This document shows positions 1 to 7,560 of a DNA stretch of 24,976 nucleotides, piece by piece (the first letter of the stretch is position 1; each line of letters opens with the position of its first letter). The DNA comes from a virus (taxonomy: Duplodnaviria; Heunggongvirae; Uroviricota; Caudoviricetes), in the IMG/VR virus record IMGVR_UViG_2526164661_000007, one strand, 5' to 3'. The translations under genes and the position numbers were made by a program. The notes beneath the pieces were generated by a model, which saw only the letters and a program-made list of their open reading frames with translations, had not been told where the DNA came from and searched no databases.

Positions 1-513
1 ATCAGCAGCAAAAGTGCGACGGCAGAAGAAGCCCTGAAGCGAATCAGTGAACTGTACGCCATCGAGAATGAAATACGGAGATTACCAGAGTCAGAGCGTC
101 TTGCAGCCAGGCAGCAGCGAAGCAAAGCGTTACTGACGTCGCTGCATGAATGGATGGTGGAGAAGAATGGCACGCTGTCGAAAAAATCCAGACTGGGCGA
201 AGCGTTCAGCTATGTACTGAATCAGTGGGACGCCCTCTGTTATTACAGTGATGACGGTCTGGCGGAGGTGGACAATAACACAGCGGAAAGAGCGCTTCGT
301 GCAGTCTGTCTCGGAAAGAAAAATTACGTGTTCTTCGGTAGCGATCACGGCGGCGAGCGTGGAGCACTGCTGTACGGGCTGATCGGCACCTGCCGACTGA
401 ACGGTATCGATCCGGAAGCGTATCTGCGCCATATTCTGAGCGTACTGCCGGAATGGCCCTCCAACCGTGTTGACGAACTCCTGCCATGGAACGTAGTACT
501 CACCAATAAATAA
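1..513 (+). CDS. IS66-family transposase, C-terminal part (5' end lies outside the window)
   Basis: Frame 1 is open from position 1 to TAA at 511-513. The translation (...[55 protein letters not shown]...DELLPWNV) matches the conserved C-terminus of IS66-family transposases as I recall it. Confidence 0.75.
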
Positions 514-541
514 GCGTCAATACGGTGCTCCGTTGACGCTT
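1..541 (+). mobile_element. IS66-family insertion sequence, right-hand portion with putative terminus
   Basis: Transposase 3' end is followed by a perfect 9-bp palindrome AAGCGTCAA...TTGACGCTT (512-540) ending in CTTAC, whose reverse complement GTAAG is the usual IS66-family terminal motif (recalled). Exact end not verifiable without the left end. Confidence 0.45.
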
Positions 542-553
542 ACGAATAATCTG

Positions 554-1339
554 ATGGTCATTGATGGTATTGAAGTTCGTCGTGATGCTTATGGGCGTTA
601 CAGCCTGAACGATCTGCACAGGGCTGCTGGTTCTCTGGATAAGCATAAGCCTGCATTCTGGCTCCGCAATGAGCAAACTGAGCGTTTAATAAGCGAGTTG
701 CAGATTTGCAACTCGGTCAATATAGAGTCAGTTAACGTTATTCGTGGCGGAAATAACCAGGGGACGTATGTCTGCAAAGAACTGGTGTATGCCTATGCAA
801 TGTGGATCAGCCCGTCATTCCATCTGAAGGTGATCCGTACTTTCGACATGGTAACCAGCGCACCGGAAAAATTATCCGGACAGGCTGCTGACAAGATGCA
901 GGCTGGTGTGATTCTGCTGGACTTTATGCGCCGGGAATTAAACCTGTCTAACTCTTCAGTGCTTGGTGCCTGTCAGAAACTCCAGGAGGCTGTTGGCTTA
1001 CCGAATCTGGCACCGCGCTATGCCATTGATGCTCCTGCTGACGCGCCTGATGGCTCAAGCCGCCCCACGCTGTCACTGAGTGCACTGCTGAAGCAGTATG
1101 GTATCCGCCTGACAGCTAATCAGGCATATCACCAGATGGTGAAGCTGGGGATCGTCGAGCAGCGCGAACGATACAGCCGTACCGCGATTAACAACATCAA
1201 AAAATTCTGGTCGCTGACGGCGAAAGGCTGCATGTTCGGCAAGAACATCACCAGTCCTGCAAATCCGCGCGAGACGCAGCCGCATTTCTTCGAATCCCGA
1301 TTCCCTGAGCTGTTAAAGCTGCTCGATACCGTTCATTGA
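554..1339 (+). CDS. KilA-N domain protein (antirepressor-like), C-terminal domain of unknown function
   Basis: ORF 533-1339; first ATG at 554 gives [26 protein letters not shown]...[18 protein letters not shown], a typical KilA-N N-terminus. The TTG at 533 lies inside the IS terminus. Confidence 0.7.
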
Positions 1340-1346
1340 GGTGACC

Positions 1347-2336
1347 GTGAGAGCACTACTGACCCCTGAAATTGCCCCGCGTATGGGGATCGTATTGTTC
1401 AGGCCAGGTTCAGAGCTGATGCCCCTGTTTATGCAGGGGCGTGTCCTGCTGGAGCCTGAGCCGGAACGTTATTCATCTTTTGCCAGTGGTGCCGTTCCGG
1501 CGGCATCACAACCGCTGGCGGATGATCCTGCCATTCGGGCCGTGTTCCGCAATGAGGCTGTGATCCGTCGGGCGGGGGGCGTGGAATGCCTTGAGAGCTG
1601 GTTACTTCGTGAAACAGGCTGCCAGTGGCCTCATTCCGGCTGGCACAGCGAGAATATGACCACAATGCGACACGCGCCGGGCGCAATCCGTCTGTGCTGG
1701 CACTGTGATAACCAGTTGCGCGATCAGTTCACGGAACGGCTGGAATCAATGGCAACGGATAACTGTGCCCGGTGGGTGTTATCTGTCGTGCGTCGGGATC
1801 TCGGTTTTGATGACAGTCACGTTGTGACAATGCCGGAACTGTGCTGGTGGCTGATTCGTAATGACCTGGCGGATGCCTTACCGGAAAGTGCAGCCCGTAA
1901 GGCACTGAGATTACCGAAGCCTGTTGTGCCGTCTGTTACCCGGGAAAGTGACCTTGTGCCTTCGGTTCCTGCCACCAGCATCATCCAGGATAAAGCGAAA
2001 AAGGTGCTGGCGCTGAAAGTGGATCCGGAGTCGCCGGAGTCTTTTATGTTACGCCCCAAACGTCGCCGCTGGGTTAATGAAAAGTACACGCGATGGGTTA
2101 AGACGCAGCCGTGCGCATGTTGTGGAAAACCTGCTGATGATCCCCACCACCTGACAGGTCACGGTCAGGGCGGAATGGGTACAAAAGCGCATGACCTCTT
2201 TGTGTTGCCTTTGTGCAGAAAGCATCACGACGAGCTGCATGCGGATACCGTGGCATTTGAAGAGAAGTATGGCTCCCAGCTTGAGCTGATATTTCGTTTT
2301 ATCGATCGCGCACTGGCGATTGGTGTGCTGGCCTGA
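1347..2336 (+). CDS. DUF968-family protein with C-terminal Cys/His (HNH-like zinc finger) motif
   Basis: ORF 1341-2336. C-terminus is [46 protein letters not shown] at 1347 is preceded by GAGGTGA; GTG 1341 and ATG 1381 are alternative starts. Sits before Q as in many lambdoid nin/late regions. Confidence 0.65.
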
Positions 2337-2353
2337 TTTTGTGGAGAAAGTTA

Positions 2354-2737
2354 ATGCGTGATATTCAGATGGTTCTTGAACGTTGGGGAGCGTGGGCGGC
2401 TAATAATCATGAAGATGTGACCTGGTCGTCCATTGCCGCCGGTTTTAAGGGATTAATTCCTTCAAAAGTAAAATCTCGCCCGCAATGTTGTGACGATGAC
2501 GCGATGATCATTTGCGGGTGCATGGCCCGTCTGAAAAAGAACAACAGCGATTTGCACGATTTATTAGTAGATTATTATGTAGTCGGTATGACATTCATGT
2601 CACTGGCAGGTAAGCATTGCTGCTCTGATGGTTATATCGGGAAAAGGTTACAGAAGGCTGAGGGCATAATTGAAGGGATGTTAATGGCATTAGATATCCG
2701 GTTAGAGATGGATATCGTTGTTAATAACTCTAATTAA
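2354..2737 (+). CDS. quuD: Late-gene antitermination protein Q, small QuuD-like family
   Basis: ATG at 2354 preceded by GGAG; 127 aa beginning [24 protein letters not shown], recognised from memory as the DLP12-type Q homologue. Cys-rich segment [12 protein letters not shown]. Confidence 0.8.
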
Positions 2738-2754
2738 TATGCCAATTGTTTACT

Positions 2755-2789
2755 AAAAATTATTAAAAATGGGGCGTTGAGACGCCCCC
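2755..2789 (-). terminator. Intrinsic terminator (GC stem plus T-tract on the - strand), distal end of the porin 3' hairpin cluster
   Basis: Stem GGGGCGT/ACGCCCC (2771-2788) with loop TGAG. On the - strand it is followed by ATTTTTAATAATTTTT (complement of 2751-2770). Confidence 0.5.
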
Positions 2790-2926
2790 AAAAATAAAGG
2801 GTAATATATAACAGAAGGTTTATATAGTTAGAAGCAAAGTTGTGCTTCTAAAGGAAGTGGCTTGAGGGAGCCACTTATATGTTGGGGAGGCAACGCCTCC
2901 CGCAACATATCTTTTTCGTAATCAGA

Positions 2927-4024
2927 TTAGAACTGGTAAACCAGACCTACAGCAACGATGTCATCAGTGCTTACACCGAGTGCTTTAGTGAAGTCATTTT
3001 TGTCAAGCAGGTTGATTTTGTAATCAACGAAAGTAGACATATTTTTGTTGAAGTAATAGGTTGCACCTACATCAACATATTTGACTAAGTCCTGATCGCC
3101 CCATACTCCAAGATCCTTACCTTTAGATTGCAGGTAAGCAACGGACGGACGCAGACCGAAATCGAACTGATATTGTGCAACAGCTTCGAAGTTTTGGGCT
3201 TTATTAGCAACGAAGTGATCAGCAAATACAGTCATATTCTGGGTTTCAGAATAGGTAGTGGCCAGGTAAATGTTGTTAGCGTCATATTTCAGACCTGCGG
3301 CCCAAACTTCTGCATTTTTACCGGAAGCAAATACTTCAGGAAGAACTTTCCCTGCATTAACTTGAGTGTCGGTACGATCAGATTTCGCATAAGTTGCACC
3401 GATACCGAATCCTTCGTATTCATAGGTAGCAGAGAAACCGAAGCCATCACCGTTACCTTCAGTGTAGTTATCGAAATCGCTACGATCGTTTTTGCCTTGG
3501 TACTGAGCAGCAAAGTTTAGACCATCAACCAGACCAAAGAAGTCGTTGTTACGATAGGTTGCAACACCAGTGGTGCGACCAGTCATGAACACATCTGTTT
3601 GGGTCCAGGTATCGCCACCGAATTCTGGCAGAACGTCAGTCCACGCACCGATGTCGTATGCTACACCGTAGTTACGGCCGTAATCGATTGAGCCGTAGTC
3701 ACCGAATTTCAGGCCTGCAAATGCAAGACGGGTTTTGTCTTTGGAGGAACCTTGAGATTCAGCGCGGTTGCCTTTGAATTCATATTCCCACTGACCGAAA
3801 CCAGTCAGTTGATCGTTGATTTGGGTTTCACCTTTGAAGCCAAGACGGGCATAAGTAGTATCACCATCATCTGCATCATTAGAGGAGAAGTAGTGCTTAG
3901 CATTAACTTTCCCGTACAGATCCAGCTTGTTACTGTCTTTATTATAAATTTCAGCTGCCTGAGCAGACATCGCCATCAGTACTGATGCAGCTACAGCAGA
4001 AATTGCCACTGTTAATTTTTTCAT
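2927..4024 (-). CDS. nmpC: Outer-membrane general porin, NmpC/Lc/OmpD family (prophage moron), apparently intact
   Basis: ORF 2927-4084 on the - strand; internal ATG at 4024 gives [23 protein letters not shown] signal peptide followed by [16 protein letters not shown]..., ending ...VGLVYQF (C-terminal Phe typical of beta-barrel porins). 365 aa. Confidence 0.9.
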
Positions 4025-4233
4025 CGTGAGCCCTTTTTTTGAACTATTATTAAAAAATGATGTCACTGCGCGATAAATATTCATCTAATCAATGTGATTA
4101 TTTCAAGATGTAAGTTTTGGTTTCTCGTTTGATTTGTGAAGTAGATCTCTATTTTTATCTGAACTTTTTTCTATCGAATCCTATTCATAGCTCTTTGCTG
4201 AATAAAAATAAATCTATTAGCCAATTTATATTA

Positions 4234-4262
4234 ACGACTGTTATTTATAAGCGCTCTATAAT
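4234..4262 (+). promoter_or_regulatory. Candidate sigma70 promoter (possible late promoter pR'): -35 ACGACT, 17-bp spacer, -10 TATAAT
   Basis: Perfect TATAAT at 4257-4262; weak -35 at 4234-4239; AT-rich upstream. About 190 nt upstream of the + strand terminator at 4452-4484. Confidence 0.3.
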
Positions 4263-4451
4263 TTGAAGGTTCAATTTAAATAAGCTAAAAATAACACTGG
4301 AAATAATTTGTTGGTTATTTGTTGAGATTTGCTTATGTATTTGTAGTGGTGTTTTCAATACTCGGTAGCATTCTCGCAAATATCATTTAGTGGTTTACGT
4401 ACGTAAAAAATTGGTTATGCTGTTAAGAGTGGTTACTTCGTCACACAGCTT

Positions 4452-4484
4452 AAACCCGCCGTCGAGCGGGTTTTTCCATTTTTT
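4452..4484 (+). terminator. Rho-independent terminator on the + strand (candidate tR')
   Basis: AAACCCGC-CGTCGA-GCGGGTTTTTCCATTTTTT: GC stem followed by two T-runs, about 115 nt upstream of the holin start. Confidence 0.6.
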
Positions 4485-4596
4485 GAGTCTCGATATTAGC
4501 TGATAACCCAATACCTGAGTTATTCACTGACTCCGAGTCTGTTACGTTTCGTAGTATTCCCTCAATTTACACCCGCTTTGTCTGCGAGGTGGGGTT

Positions 4597-4812
4597 ATGA
4601 AATCCATGGATAAGTTAACAACGGGTGTCGCCTATGGCACCTCAGCAGGTAGTGCCGGGTACTGGTTTTTACAGCTGCTAGATAAAGTCACGCCCTCACA
4701 GTGGGCGGCAATTGGAGTGCTGGGTAGCCTGGTATTTGGCCTGCTGACGTACCTGACAAACCTTTATTTCAAGATTAAAGAAGATAAGCGCAAGGCTGCG
4801 AGAGGTGAATAA
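4597..4812 (+). CDS. essD: Class II holin (pinholin, phage-21 S type) with dual-start motif
   Basis: 71 aa, [26 protein letters not shown]..., two TMDs. Met1-Lys-Ser-Met4 dual start. RBS GAGGTGGGG upstream. Confidence 0.9.
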
Positions 4813-5309
4813 TGTCGCCATCATTACGCAAGGCTGTAGCAGCTGCTATTGGTGGTGGGGCTGTTGCCATAGCGTCTGTGCTCATCACTGGTCCGAGTGG
4901 TGACGATGGTCTGGAAGGTGTCAGCTACATACCATATAAAGATATTGTTGGTGTATGGACTGTATGTCACGGGCATACAGGAAAAGACATCATGCTCGGT
5001 AAAACGTATACCAAAGCAGAATGCAAAGCACTCTTGAATAAAGACCTTGCCACTGTCGCCAGACAAATTAACCCGTACATCAAAGTCGATATACCGGAAA
5101 CAACGCGCGGCGCTTTTTACTCATTCGTTTACAACGTGGGTGCTGGCAATTTCAGAACATCGACGCTTCTTCGCAAAATAAACCAGGGCGATATCAAAGG
5201 CGCATGTGATCAGCTACGTCGCTGGACATATGCTGGCGGTAAGCAATGGAAAGGTCTCATGACTCGTCGTGAGATTGAGCGTGAAATCTGTTTGTGGGGT
5301 CAGCAATGA
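4812..5309 (+). CDS. rrrD: SAR (signal-anchor-release) endolysin, lysozyme, phage-21 R type
   Basis: 165 aa. N-terminal Gly/Ala-rich weakly hydrophobic SAR segment [20 protein letters not shown] followed by a lysozyme domain. Start overlaps the holin stop (TAATG). Confidence 0.9.
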
Positions 5310-5767
5310 ACAGAGTAACCGCGATTATCTCCGCTCTGGTTATCTGCATCATCGTCGGCCTGTCATGGGCTGTTAATCATTACCGTGATAACGCCATTAC
5401 CTACAAAGCCCAGCGCGACAAAAATGCCAGAGAACTGAAGCTGGCGAACGCGGCAATTACTGACATGCAGATGCGTCAGCGTGATGTTGCTGCGCTCGAT
5501 GCAAAATACACGAAGGAGTTAGCTGATGCGAAAGCTGAAAATGATGCTCTGCGTGATGATGTTGCCGCTGGTCGTCGTCGGTTGCACATCAAAGCAGTCT
5601 GTCAGTCAGTGCGTGAAGCCACCACCGCCTCCGGCGTGGATAATGCAGCCTCCCCCCGACTGGCAGACACCGCTGAACGGGATTATTTCACCCTCAGAGA
5701 GAGGCTGATCACTATGCAAAAACAACTGGAAGGAACCCAGAAGTATATTAATGAGCAGTGCAGATAG
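5306..5767 (+). CDS. rzpD: Spanin inner-membrane subunit Rz (i-spanin)
   Basis: ATG at 5306 overlaps the endolysin stop (ATGA). N-terminal TMD, coiled-coil periplasmic domain; close to lambda Rz from memory. Confidence 0.9.
5526..5708 (+). CDS. rzoD: Spanin outer-membrane lipoprotein Rz1 (o-spanin), embedded in the +1 frame of Rz
   Basis: 60 aa, lipobox LVVVGC, proline-rich (PPPPP, PPP). AAGGAG RBS 7 nt upstream. Confidence 0.9.
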
Positions 5768-5798: not shown

Positions 5799-6092
5799 TT
5801 ATTGTGAGCAATACACACGCGCTTCCAGCGGAGTATAAATGCCTAAAGTAATAAAACCGAGCAATCCATTTACGAATGTTTGCTGGGTTTCTGTTTTAAC
5901 AACATTTTCTGCGCCGCCACAAATTTTGGCTGCATCAACAGTTTTCTCCTGTCCAATTCCCGAAACGAAGAAGTGATGGGTGATGGTTTCCTTTGGTGTT
6001 ACTGCTGTCGGTTTGTTTCCAACAGTAAACGTCTGTTGAGCACATCCTGTAATAAGCATTGCCAGAGCGGCAGAAAACAACATTTTTTTCAT
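5799..6092 (-). CDS. bor: Bor lipoprotein (serum-resistance moron)
   Basis: Internal ATG at 6092 (AGGA RBS) gives MKKMLFSAALAMLITGCAQQ... (lipobox), 97 aa; matches lambda Bor from memory. Convergent with Rz. Confidence 0.9.
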   Translation of the reverse strand: MKKMLFSAALAMLITGCAQQTFTVGNKPTAVTPKETITHHFFVSGIGQEKTVDAAKICGGAENVVKTETQQTFVNGLLGFITLGIYTPLEARVYCSQ

Positions 6093-6225
6093 CTTATTAT
6101 CCTGCATTGTTAAAAACGGCAGAATCCTATGTGACAACAATTAAACGATAGTTAAATGGATTGATGAAAATTAAAACTATATAGGTGGATGCTCAGCCTA
6201 TTGGAGGAGGGGGGCACTCAGAATC

Positions 6226-6230: not shown

Positions 6231-6321
6231 TAGACTGGCCCCCTGAATCTCCAGACAACCAATATCACTTAAATAAGTGATAGTCTTAATACTAGTTTTT
6301 AGACTAGTCATTGGAGAGCAG

Positions 6322-6686
6322 ATGATTGATGTCTTAGGACCGGAGAAACGCAGACGGCGTACTACACAGGAAAAGATCGCTATTGTTCAGCAGAGTTTTG
6401 AACCGGGAATGACGGTCTCCCTTGTTGCCCGGCAACACGGTGTGGCAGCCAGCCAGTTATTTCTCTGGCGCAAGCAATACCAGGAGGGAAGTCTTACTGC
6501 TGTGGCCGCAGGAGAGCAGGTCGTTCCTGCCTCTGAACTTGCTGCTGCCATGAAGCAGATTAAAGAACTCCAGCGCCTGCTCGGCAAAAAACGATGGAAA
6601 ATGAACTCCTTAAAGAAGCCGTTGAATACGGGCGTGCAAAAAAGTGGATAGCGCACGCGCCCTTATTGCCCGGGGATGGGGAGTAA
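6322..6686 (+). pseudogene. insC: IS2 insC (OrfA), apparently frameshifted in an A-run (A6 at 6586-6591)
   Basis: ATG 6322 (frame 1) encodes [25 protein letters not shown]...LLGKK; the conserved InsC C-terminal part [31 protein letters not shown] (to TAA 6684-6686) is in frame 3. As sequenced, frame 1 stops at 6649-6651. Confidence 0.6.
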
Positions 6687-7549
6687 GCTTAGTCAGCCGT
6701 TGTCTCCGGGTGTCGCGTGCGCAGTTGCACGTAATTCTCAGACGAACCGATGACTGGAAAGATGGTCGCCGCAGCCGTCACTCAGATGATACGGATGTGC
6801 TTCTCCGTATACACCATGTTATCGGAGAGCTGCCCACGTATGGTTATCGTCGGGTATGGGCGCTGCTTCGCAGACAGGCCGAACTTGATGGTATGCCTGC
6901 GATCAATGCCAAACGTGTTTACCGGATCATGCGCCAGAATGCGCTGTTGCTTGAGCGAAAAACCGCTGTACCGCCATCGAAACGGGCACATACTGGCAAA
7001 GTGGCCGTGAAAGAAAGCAATCAACGATGGTGCTCTGACGGGTTCGAGTTCCGCTGTGATAACGGAGAAAAACTGCGAGTCACGTTCGCGCTGGACTGCT
7101 GTGACCGTGAGGCACTGCACTGGGCAGTCACTACGGGCGGCTTCGACAGTGAAACAGTACAGGACGTAATGCTGGGAGCGGTGGAACGCCGCTTCGGCAA
7201 CGAGCTTCCGGCGTCTCCAGTAGAGTGGCTGACGGATAATGGTTCATGCTACCGGGCTAATGAAACACGGCAGTTTGCCCGGATGTTGGGGCTTGAACCG
7301 AAGAACACGGCGGTGCGGAGTCCGGAGAGTAACGGCATAGCAGAGAGCTTCGTGAAAACGATAAAGCGTGACTACATCAGTATCATGCCTAAACCAGACG
7401 GGTTAACGGCAGCAAAGAACCTTGCAGAGGCGTTCGAGCATTATAACGAATGGCATCCGCATAGTGCACTGGGTTATCGCTCGCCACGGGAATATCTGCG
7501 GCAGCAGGCCAGTAATGGGTTAAGTGATAACAGGTATCTGGAAATATAG
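6644..7549 (+). CDS. insD: IS2 insD (OrfB, DDE transposase catalytic domain)
   Basis: 301 aa from GTG 6644, with DDE/integrase core. Normally made as InsCD fusion by -1 slippage at A6G (6638-6644). Confidence 0.85.
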
Positions 7550-7560
7550 GGGCAAATCCA

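Follow-up and report, generated by a model that had tools for sequence, protein, structure and literature searches.

Introduction

Why a lambdoid prophage should carry a complete general porin gene, on the strand opposite to its late genes and between the late antiterminator gene Q and the lysis genes, and whether that gene serves the lysogen, are the questions raised by the locus at positions 2927-4024 of the window (the whole 24,976-nucleotide stretch of viral DNA analysed). The conclusion, reached with high confidence, is that the locus represents, in uninterrupted form, the classical NmpC/Lc cassette carried by lambdoid prophages of the DLP12/PA-2 type; this cassette would be expressed in the lysogen together with IpeX, a small RNA lowering OmpC and OmpF. 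Work on the gene, on its IS5-bearing K-12 allele and on the promoter and small RNA that go with it dates back to the 1980s, and the feature is already known and ordinary; the useful clarification is anatomical, and concerns the placement of the cassette between Q and the late promoter. A literature search on PA-2, Lc and lysogenic conversion found nothing.

An intact porin of the NmpC/Lc type

The list of open reading frames contains a minus-strand frame at 2927-4084, which holds a 365-residue porin starting at an ATG at 4024 and ending at 2927 (coding sequence 2927-4024, minus strand; MKKLTVAIS...GLVYQF*). The Pfam profile Porin_1 (PF00267) is matched over its full length (1-337 of 337, E=1e-156). 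Among NCBIfam models the best match is the OmpC subfamily NF007841, at 526.5 bits against a cutoff of 484, while the scores fall below the PhoE and OmpF equivalog cutoffs. Residues 24-365 match the solved chains of OmpC, OmpK36, PhoE and OmpF with E values down to 1e-135, from which a trimeric 16-strand beta-barrel with pore activity is predicted. The 23-residue signal peptide (3956-4024, minus strand), with an Ala-X-Ala site and cleavage before AEIYNK, is the same as the sig_peptide annotated in the PA-2 lc gene (J02580 1492-1560), and the other end of the protein (...VGLVYQF) retains the terminal Phe of the aromatic assembly signal. In the porin alignment, the loop-3 motif PEFGGD occupies P133-D138, and K39, R60, R99, R150 and D124 align with OmpC and OmpF.

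Identity and intactness can both be read directly from comparison with known copies. The protein is identical at 363 of 365 residues to PA-2 Lc (99.5%) and at all 365 to the RefSeq ‘porin’ WP_000737266.1 of APEC E19025, and it matches the temperate phage PhiR26_1 porin at 100% identity; the APEC E19025 prophage that encodes WP_000737266.1 adjoins tRNA-Arg and intD, the DLP12 site. K-12 NmpC agrees with it at 344 of the 346 residues over the codons that K-12 retains, and in the MG1655 record nmpC (b0553) is a pseudogene in two fragments with IS5B between them. The earlier note, made from the letters alone, had described a full-length NmpC/Lc-type porin with a signal peptide and a C-terminal Phe, and had given the K-12 DLP12 copy as inactivated by an insertion; both descriptions were borne out, the K-12 copy being split by IS5B with the loss of its last 19 residues, and the window copy showing no frameshift or stop.

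Over the 346 residues compared, the protein departs from K-12 NmpC only at G149 and T151 (residues 149-151 are encoded at 3571-3579, minus strand). These two flank R150, the residue aligned with the arginine that OmpF and OmpC have in the constriction zone. This polymorphism may affect pore function.

Position between Q and the late promoter

The late antiterminator gene Q, of the QuuD type, lies at 2339-2737 on the plus strand (Phage_antitermQ, E=9.8e-54) and is convergent with the porin cassette. Its product shares 79% amino-acid identity with the Q of VT1-Sakai and gives a distant match to the solved Q21 (E=7e-8); homology to the Q of Stx phages ends near 2718. On the far side of the porin stand the lysis genes, all on the plus strand: a P21-type holin S (4597-4812; Pfam Phage_holin_2_1), the lysozyme endolysin R (4812-5309; Phage_lysozyme), Rz (5294-5767; Phage_lysis), and Rz1 (5526-5708) embedded within Rz, the genes being annotated essD/rrrD/rzpD in relatives. 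An opposite-strand porin between Q and the lysis cassette, as first described, is thus what is found.

Between the porin start and S, a late promoter module could be located by homology. When phage genomes were searched at high sensitivity, the stretch 4393-4475 was seen to resemble, at 77-88% identity, a short segment present in several hundred records of Stx phages. Within it, the late promoter pR' is assigned to 4394-4421 on the plus strand (-35 TTTACG at 4394-4399, a spacing of 16 nt, and -10 TATGCT at 4416-4421), in alignment with the ‘putative late promoter’ of VT1-Sakai (L009 702-729) and with phage 06-3462. A putative Q-utilisation (qut) site follows at 4435-4442 (plus strand), aligned with the ‘putative Q-utilization’ feature at L009 743-750. 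At 4452-4485 (plus strand) lies tR', the terminator of the short pR' transcript that is overridden by Q, with the hairpin AAACCCGCCGTCGAGCGGGTTT followed by TTCCATTTTT; it aligns, at 4455-4477, with the VT1-Sakai ‘rho-independent terminator for pR' transcript’, and the intrinsic terminator at 4452-4473 is found 124 bp before the holin start. The assignment of pR' rests on this DNA similarity of 77-88%, and the matching features carry the label ‘putative’ in their own source records; a relaxed hexamer scan likewise picks up 4394-4421. A perfect TATAAT at 4257 had also been considered as pR', and was dropped in favour of 4394-4421 after the homology to the annotated Stx-phage pR' was found.

In VT1-Sakai and phage 06-3462 the pR'-qut-tR' segment begins in the last codons of Q, with no porin between. 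The porin cassette of the window therefore appears, by this homology, to be wedged between Q and pR'. With pR' situated between the porin start and S, it would lie outside the late transcript, would be independent of Q, and would not be read in antisense by late transcription. Its placement ‘inside the late region’, as originally described, holds for its position along the DNA but probably not for its transcription.

Just past Q, the sequence GTTTAC..TAAAAAT (2748-2762, plus strand) resembles the -35 region of pR' (4393-4411, plus strand; GTTTACGTACGTAAAAAAT). This short likeness may be what is left of the junction formed when the cassette was acquired, or may be due to chance in AT-rich DNA.

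The cassette as phage cargo

Relative to the Stx-phage arrangement, the interposed DNA amounts to about 1.65 kb (2719-4390), and comprises nmpC with roughly 370 bp of the DNA upstream of it, the putative IpeX tail and a terminator; this anatomy, like the position relative to pR', is shown by the present analysis. The unit is self-contained, a short leader separating its promoter from the coding sequence. Several properties associated with morons were found. The cassette has its own terminator and a promoter identical to the mapped PnmpC of K-12, it is absent from the same position in VT1-Sakai and 06-3462, and its base composition is unlike that of the neighbouring phage genes: the G+C content is 44.1% in the coding sequence, 34% upstream and 39% downstream of it, against 54% at 541-2338, 57% in the structural genes and 54.2% in the window. 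A repeat search returned no flanking direct or inverted repeats marking the cassette as a transposed unit.

A quite different account would make the gene a chromosomal ompC paralogue that lies near phage genes by chance, and would explain why the NCBIfam OmpC subfamily is its best match and why RefSeq calls a sister allele ‘porin OmpC’. Identity to K-12 OmpC is only 66%, however; phage genes lie on both flanks within one prophage; the porin is found in 42 phage records, including phages induced from ECOR strains, at the same Q-to-S position; and related Stx phages lack a porin there, pR' abutting Q instead. Synteny and identity together led to the rejection of the paralogue, which is scarcely conceivable on this evidence.

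Distribution of the allele

Of 5,426 complete E. coli genomes, about 1,594 match the porin coding sequence at a nucleotide identity of at least 95%, and a sister allele at 86-90% nucleotide identity is carried by about 1,500 further E. coli genomes and, at 91% amino-acid identity, by phages. RefSeq labels this sister allele ‘ompC: porin OmpC’, so that counts of ‘ompC’ in E. coli annotations will include prophage porins.

Interruption was scored in the complete E. coli genomes with a 120-base probe across the K-12 IS5 site, which was uninterrupted in 760 genomes (a few of these being distant ompC-labelled matches) and split in about 300, the split copies being, in the rows sampled, mostly from K-12 or other laboratory strains. 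The intact copy is the usual state, and the K-12 IS5 allele is a minority one, largely of laboratory lineage. The contrast with K-12 drawn in the earlier note consequently stands as regards intactness, but does not make the window copy special.

The K-12-type allele also occurs outside K-12, in the phage 434 isolate 434B (OL657227.1, 2822-5118), where the DLP12 nmpC with IS5 after codon 346 lies in the ‘434 nonhomology’ region. Its presence in a laboratory stock of phage 434 implies that the Q-nmpC-S segment was picked up by recombination with the K-12 cryptic prophage.

The upstream region and expression

The intergenic region at 4025-4596 is 572 bp long and has a G+C content of 33.9%, in agreement with the AT-rich stretch of about 570 bp first described. 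Conservation of the regulatory DNA is a direct observation: K-12 has exactly the same 170 bp before the ATG, and an alignment of the whole upstream region with those of K-12, PA-2 and PhiR26_1 gives a mean column identity of 96%. The core of PnmpC is placed at 4069-4106 (minus strand), with TTGAAA at 4106-4101, an AT-rich -10 near 4081-4076 and the start ‘G’ near 4071-4069, the hexamers being putative and positioned by eye. A consensus sigma-70 scan of 2650-4700 gave no site at threshold, the PnmpC hexamers being weak, and a relaxed promoter scan gave several weak candidates, including the perfect TATAAT at 4257. A promoter-proximal CRP site at 4132-4152 (minus strand; ATAGAGATCTACTTCACAAAT) is identical to the CRP misc_binding feature at J02580 1363-1383, and a second CRP site annotated in PA-2 maps from the same record to 4448-4428.

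Transcription, its regulation, the action of IpeX and the physiological consequences are drawn, here and below, from the literature on identical or near-identical copies. The start ‘G’ of the sigma-70 promoter PnmpC has been mapped in K-12 by 5' RACE, and the promoter is active, yielding the sole detectable IS5 transposase fusion transcript (PMC11677980). It is reported to be activated by Crp and repressed by OmpR, IHF and MprA, and to be under RyhB control as well (PMC11677980), and the nmpC mRNA is a target of RybB (PMC3333887). In strain LF82, NmpC of the prophage Perceval stands 10-fold above the local prophage background (PMC9928086), and in CFT073 nmpC mRNA and protein increase at 37 C (PMC12890032). 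By analogy with these copies the window porin is probably expressed, and its description as ‘potentially expressed’ was a reasonable one, given the 170 bp shared with the active K-12 promoter and the expression of the LF82 and CFT073 alleles.

The main rival to expression in the lysogen is that the porin is intact yet largely silent, its AT-rich upstream region being held repressed by OmpR, IHF, MprA and possibly H-NS, so that the gene would be a reserve selected only upon loss of OmpC and OmpF. Such silence would suit an upstream region of 27-34% GC with no strong sigma-70 consensus, as well as the repressors reported for PnmpC; the title of Prilipov et al. 1998, as cited in PMC3333887, terms nmpC a ‘quiescent’ porin gene, and a review dealing with K-12 raises the possibility that its expression is actually harmful (PMC11677980). 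Against this are set the fusion transcript driven by the same promoter in K-12, the mRNA and protein of CFT073, and the level reached in LF82, while the persistence of uninterrupted copies in hundreds of genomes argues for use. Silence is accordingly considered unlikely, though it deserves to be kept in mind, and expression in the lysogen is preferred.

A further element lies back to back with PnmpC. A sigma-E-like motif, GAACTA-N16-TCACT, was recognised by eye at 4041-4067 on the plus strand, facing the lysis genes, with a predicted start near 4073, opposite the PnmpC start at about 4070 (minus strand). The regulatory fragment of the DLP12 lysis operon extends from -121 to +650 (PMC7918800), and its forward primer maps to position 3952 of the window, which puts +1 near 4073, in agreement with the motif. 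The reverse primer of this reporter was not located in the window or K-12, and it is the forward primer alone that anchors +1. The porin leader may thus contain a second promoter for the lysis genes.

The 3' tail, IpeX and the porin terminator

Downstream of the porin stop codon lies a structured untranslated tail of about 170 nt (2758-2926, minus strand; ends approximate), which went unmentioned in the earlier note. It folds into four to five hairpins with a minimum free energy of -63.1 kcal/mol (z=-8.3 against shuffles), and differs by one base from K-12 DLP12 and PA-2. An Rfam search of 2300-4900 at a permissive threshold gave no family for the tail, the only hits being chance-level matches to Trp_leader (E=0.5) and SNORD123 (E=0.9). 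IpeX is a 167-nt RNA of DLP12 and PA-2, which is made from the phage porin promoter within the porin transcript and then processed, and which represses ompC and ompF, lowering OmpC and OmpF (PMC12197685, PMC5069750, PMC8065619). Since its length and position fit this RNA, the tail is taken to be the putative IpeX region.

The transcript would end at an intrinsic terminator at 2760-2788 (minus strand), formed by GGGGCGTCTCAACGCCCC followed by ATTTTTAATA, which is nearly identical in K-12, PA-2 and PhiR26_1, the last having two loop changes and one in the T-tract. This terminator (2788-2771) is of moderate strength, and only 34 bp separate the end of the transcript from the Q stop codon, Q being convergent with it; read-through would produce RNA antisense to Q. 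Together with the putative sigma-E-type lysis promoter, this would make the cassette, beyond its role as cargo, a candidate brake or switch through which host signals (CRP, OmpR, envelope stress) act on late-gene and lysis expression, an idea regarded as highly doubtful.

Proposed mechanism

In the preferred reading, host RNA polymerase in the lysogen would transcribe nmpC-ipeX from PnmpC, apart from the repressed late operon and under CRP and osmolarity/pH control. Sec would export the precursor, which would lose its first 23 residues, and BAM, guided by the C-terminal Phe, would insert NmpC into the outer membrane as a general-diffusion porin, a trimer of 16-strand barrels. Processing of the 3' tail to IpeX would reduce the synthesis of OmpC and OmpF, so that the phage porin would partly replace the host porins; outer-membrane permeability would be changed, and OmpC would be removed as a receptor for superinfecting phages.

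OmpC is the receptor of PA-2. One possibility is that the main selected product is IpeX together with a replacement porin, and that the phage rather than the host benefits: lowering OmpC would take away the receptor of PA-2-like phages (superinfection exclusion), and NmpC would keep up permeability for growth. The 3' tail, with its single changed base, is as conserved as the coding sequence and is strongly structured, the repression of OmpC and OmpF by IpeX is documented (PMC12197685, PMC5069750, PMC8065619), and the cassette, in its 42 phage records, travels with active temperate phages. Weighing the other way are the retention of the cassette by the defective DLP12, from which no phage gains, and host-side phenotypes of NmpC, such as heat resistance, in work cited by PMC12890032. 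A benefit to the phage of this kind is therefore advanced tentatively, as a possibility short of even chances, and the proposed lysogen-expressed cassette is the reading followed below.

Prophage surroundings

The condition of the prophage bears on any such benefit. Directly after the lysis genes stands a second item of opposite-strand cargo, a Bor/Iss-type outer-membrane lipoprotein gene (5799-6140, minus strand; Lambda_Bor E=1e-30), which in the near-identical APEC prophage bears the annotation ‘iss, increased serum survival’. Between this gene and ylcI, the window has a 1,330-bp insertion (6231-7560) relative to APEC E19025, which encodes a 124-residue HTH transposase and a 301-residue rve integrase, with a 5-bp junction overlap as a target duplication; from the sizes of its reading frames it is presumably IS2. 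Positions 1-553 are the end of an IS66-family element (the C-terminus of an ISEc47-like transposase), which abuts the KilA-N gene where related prophages have rusA. No match across this IS66/KilA-N junction was found among the complete E. coli genomes in the collection, which suggests that the early region of the prophage is interrupted or truncated there. In view of these IS insertions, it is uncertain whether the prophage can be induced and, in consequence, whether the phage draws any benefit.

Significance

The strain probably has available, besides a small RNA that represses porins, a general porin that would be its third, and these can affect antibiotic entry, the display of phage receptors, and surface antigens. 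The cassette is therefore relevant when ompC and ompF mutants or phage host range are interpreted. Its location between Q and the late promoter would make expression in the lysogen possible without touching the late operon, unlike stx cargo.

Comparison with known systems

The closest counterpart is the Lc porin (‘protein 2’) of phage PA-2 (J02580), which matches the window in its signal peptide, its orientation relative to the lysis genes, its CRP sites, its upstream region and its 3' tail. The two proteins differ by R99H and V154F in PA-2, and in the distal upstream region PA-2 carries an insertion of 16 bp and base changes at scattered sites relative to the window. In DLP12 of K-12, nmpC (b0553) is the same gene in the same place, between quuD and essD, with the 170 bp before the ATG shared exactly and the 3' tail one base off. 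It is cut by IS5B after codon 346, so that the last 19 residues, including the C-terminal Phe, are lost, whereas the window copy is complete; K-12 NmpC has Q149 and A151 where the window porin has G149 and T151, and upstream of Q the genes ybcN-ninE-ybcO-rusA-ylcG of DLP12 contrast with KilA-N and DUF968 in the window.

The host porins OmpC, OmpF and PhoE, and OmpK36 of Klebsiella, belong to the same family, and the same fold and function are predicted for the window porin. K-12 OmpC and OmpF share 66% and 62% amino-acid identity with it, respectively, and the PEFGGD motif, the Lys and Arg residues of the constriction and the YQF end are kept. The lengths of the external loops differ, and the window gene is, unlike these porins, prophage-encoded with its own regulation.

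In the stx phages, cargo is also found in the Q-to-S interval, beside a related Q (79% amino-acid identity) and a homologous pR'-qut-tR' module. The stx genes, however, are placed on the late strand, downstream of pR'-tR', and induction leads to their transcription together with the late genes, whereas the porin cassette has a promoter and a terminator of its own and occupies the other strand, upstream of pR'. With this arrangement the cassette appears, unlike stx, to be built for expression in the uninduced lysogen.
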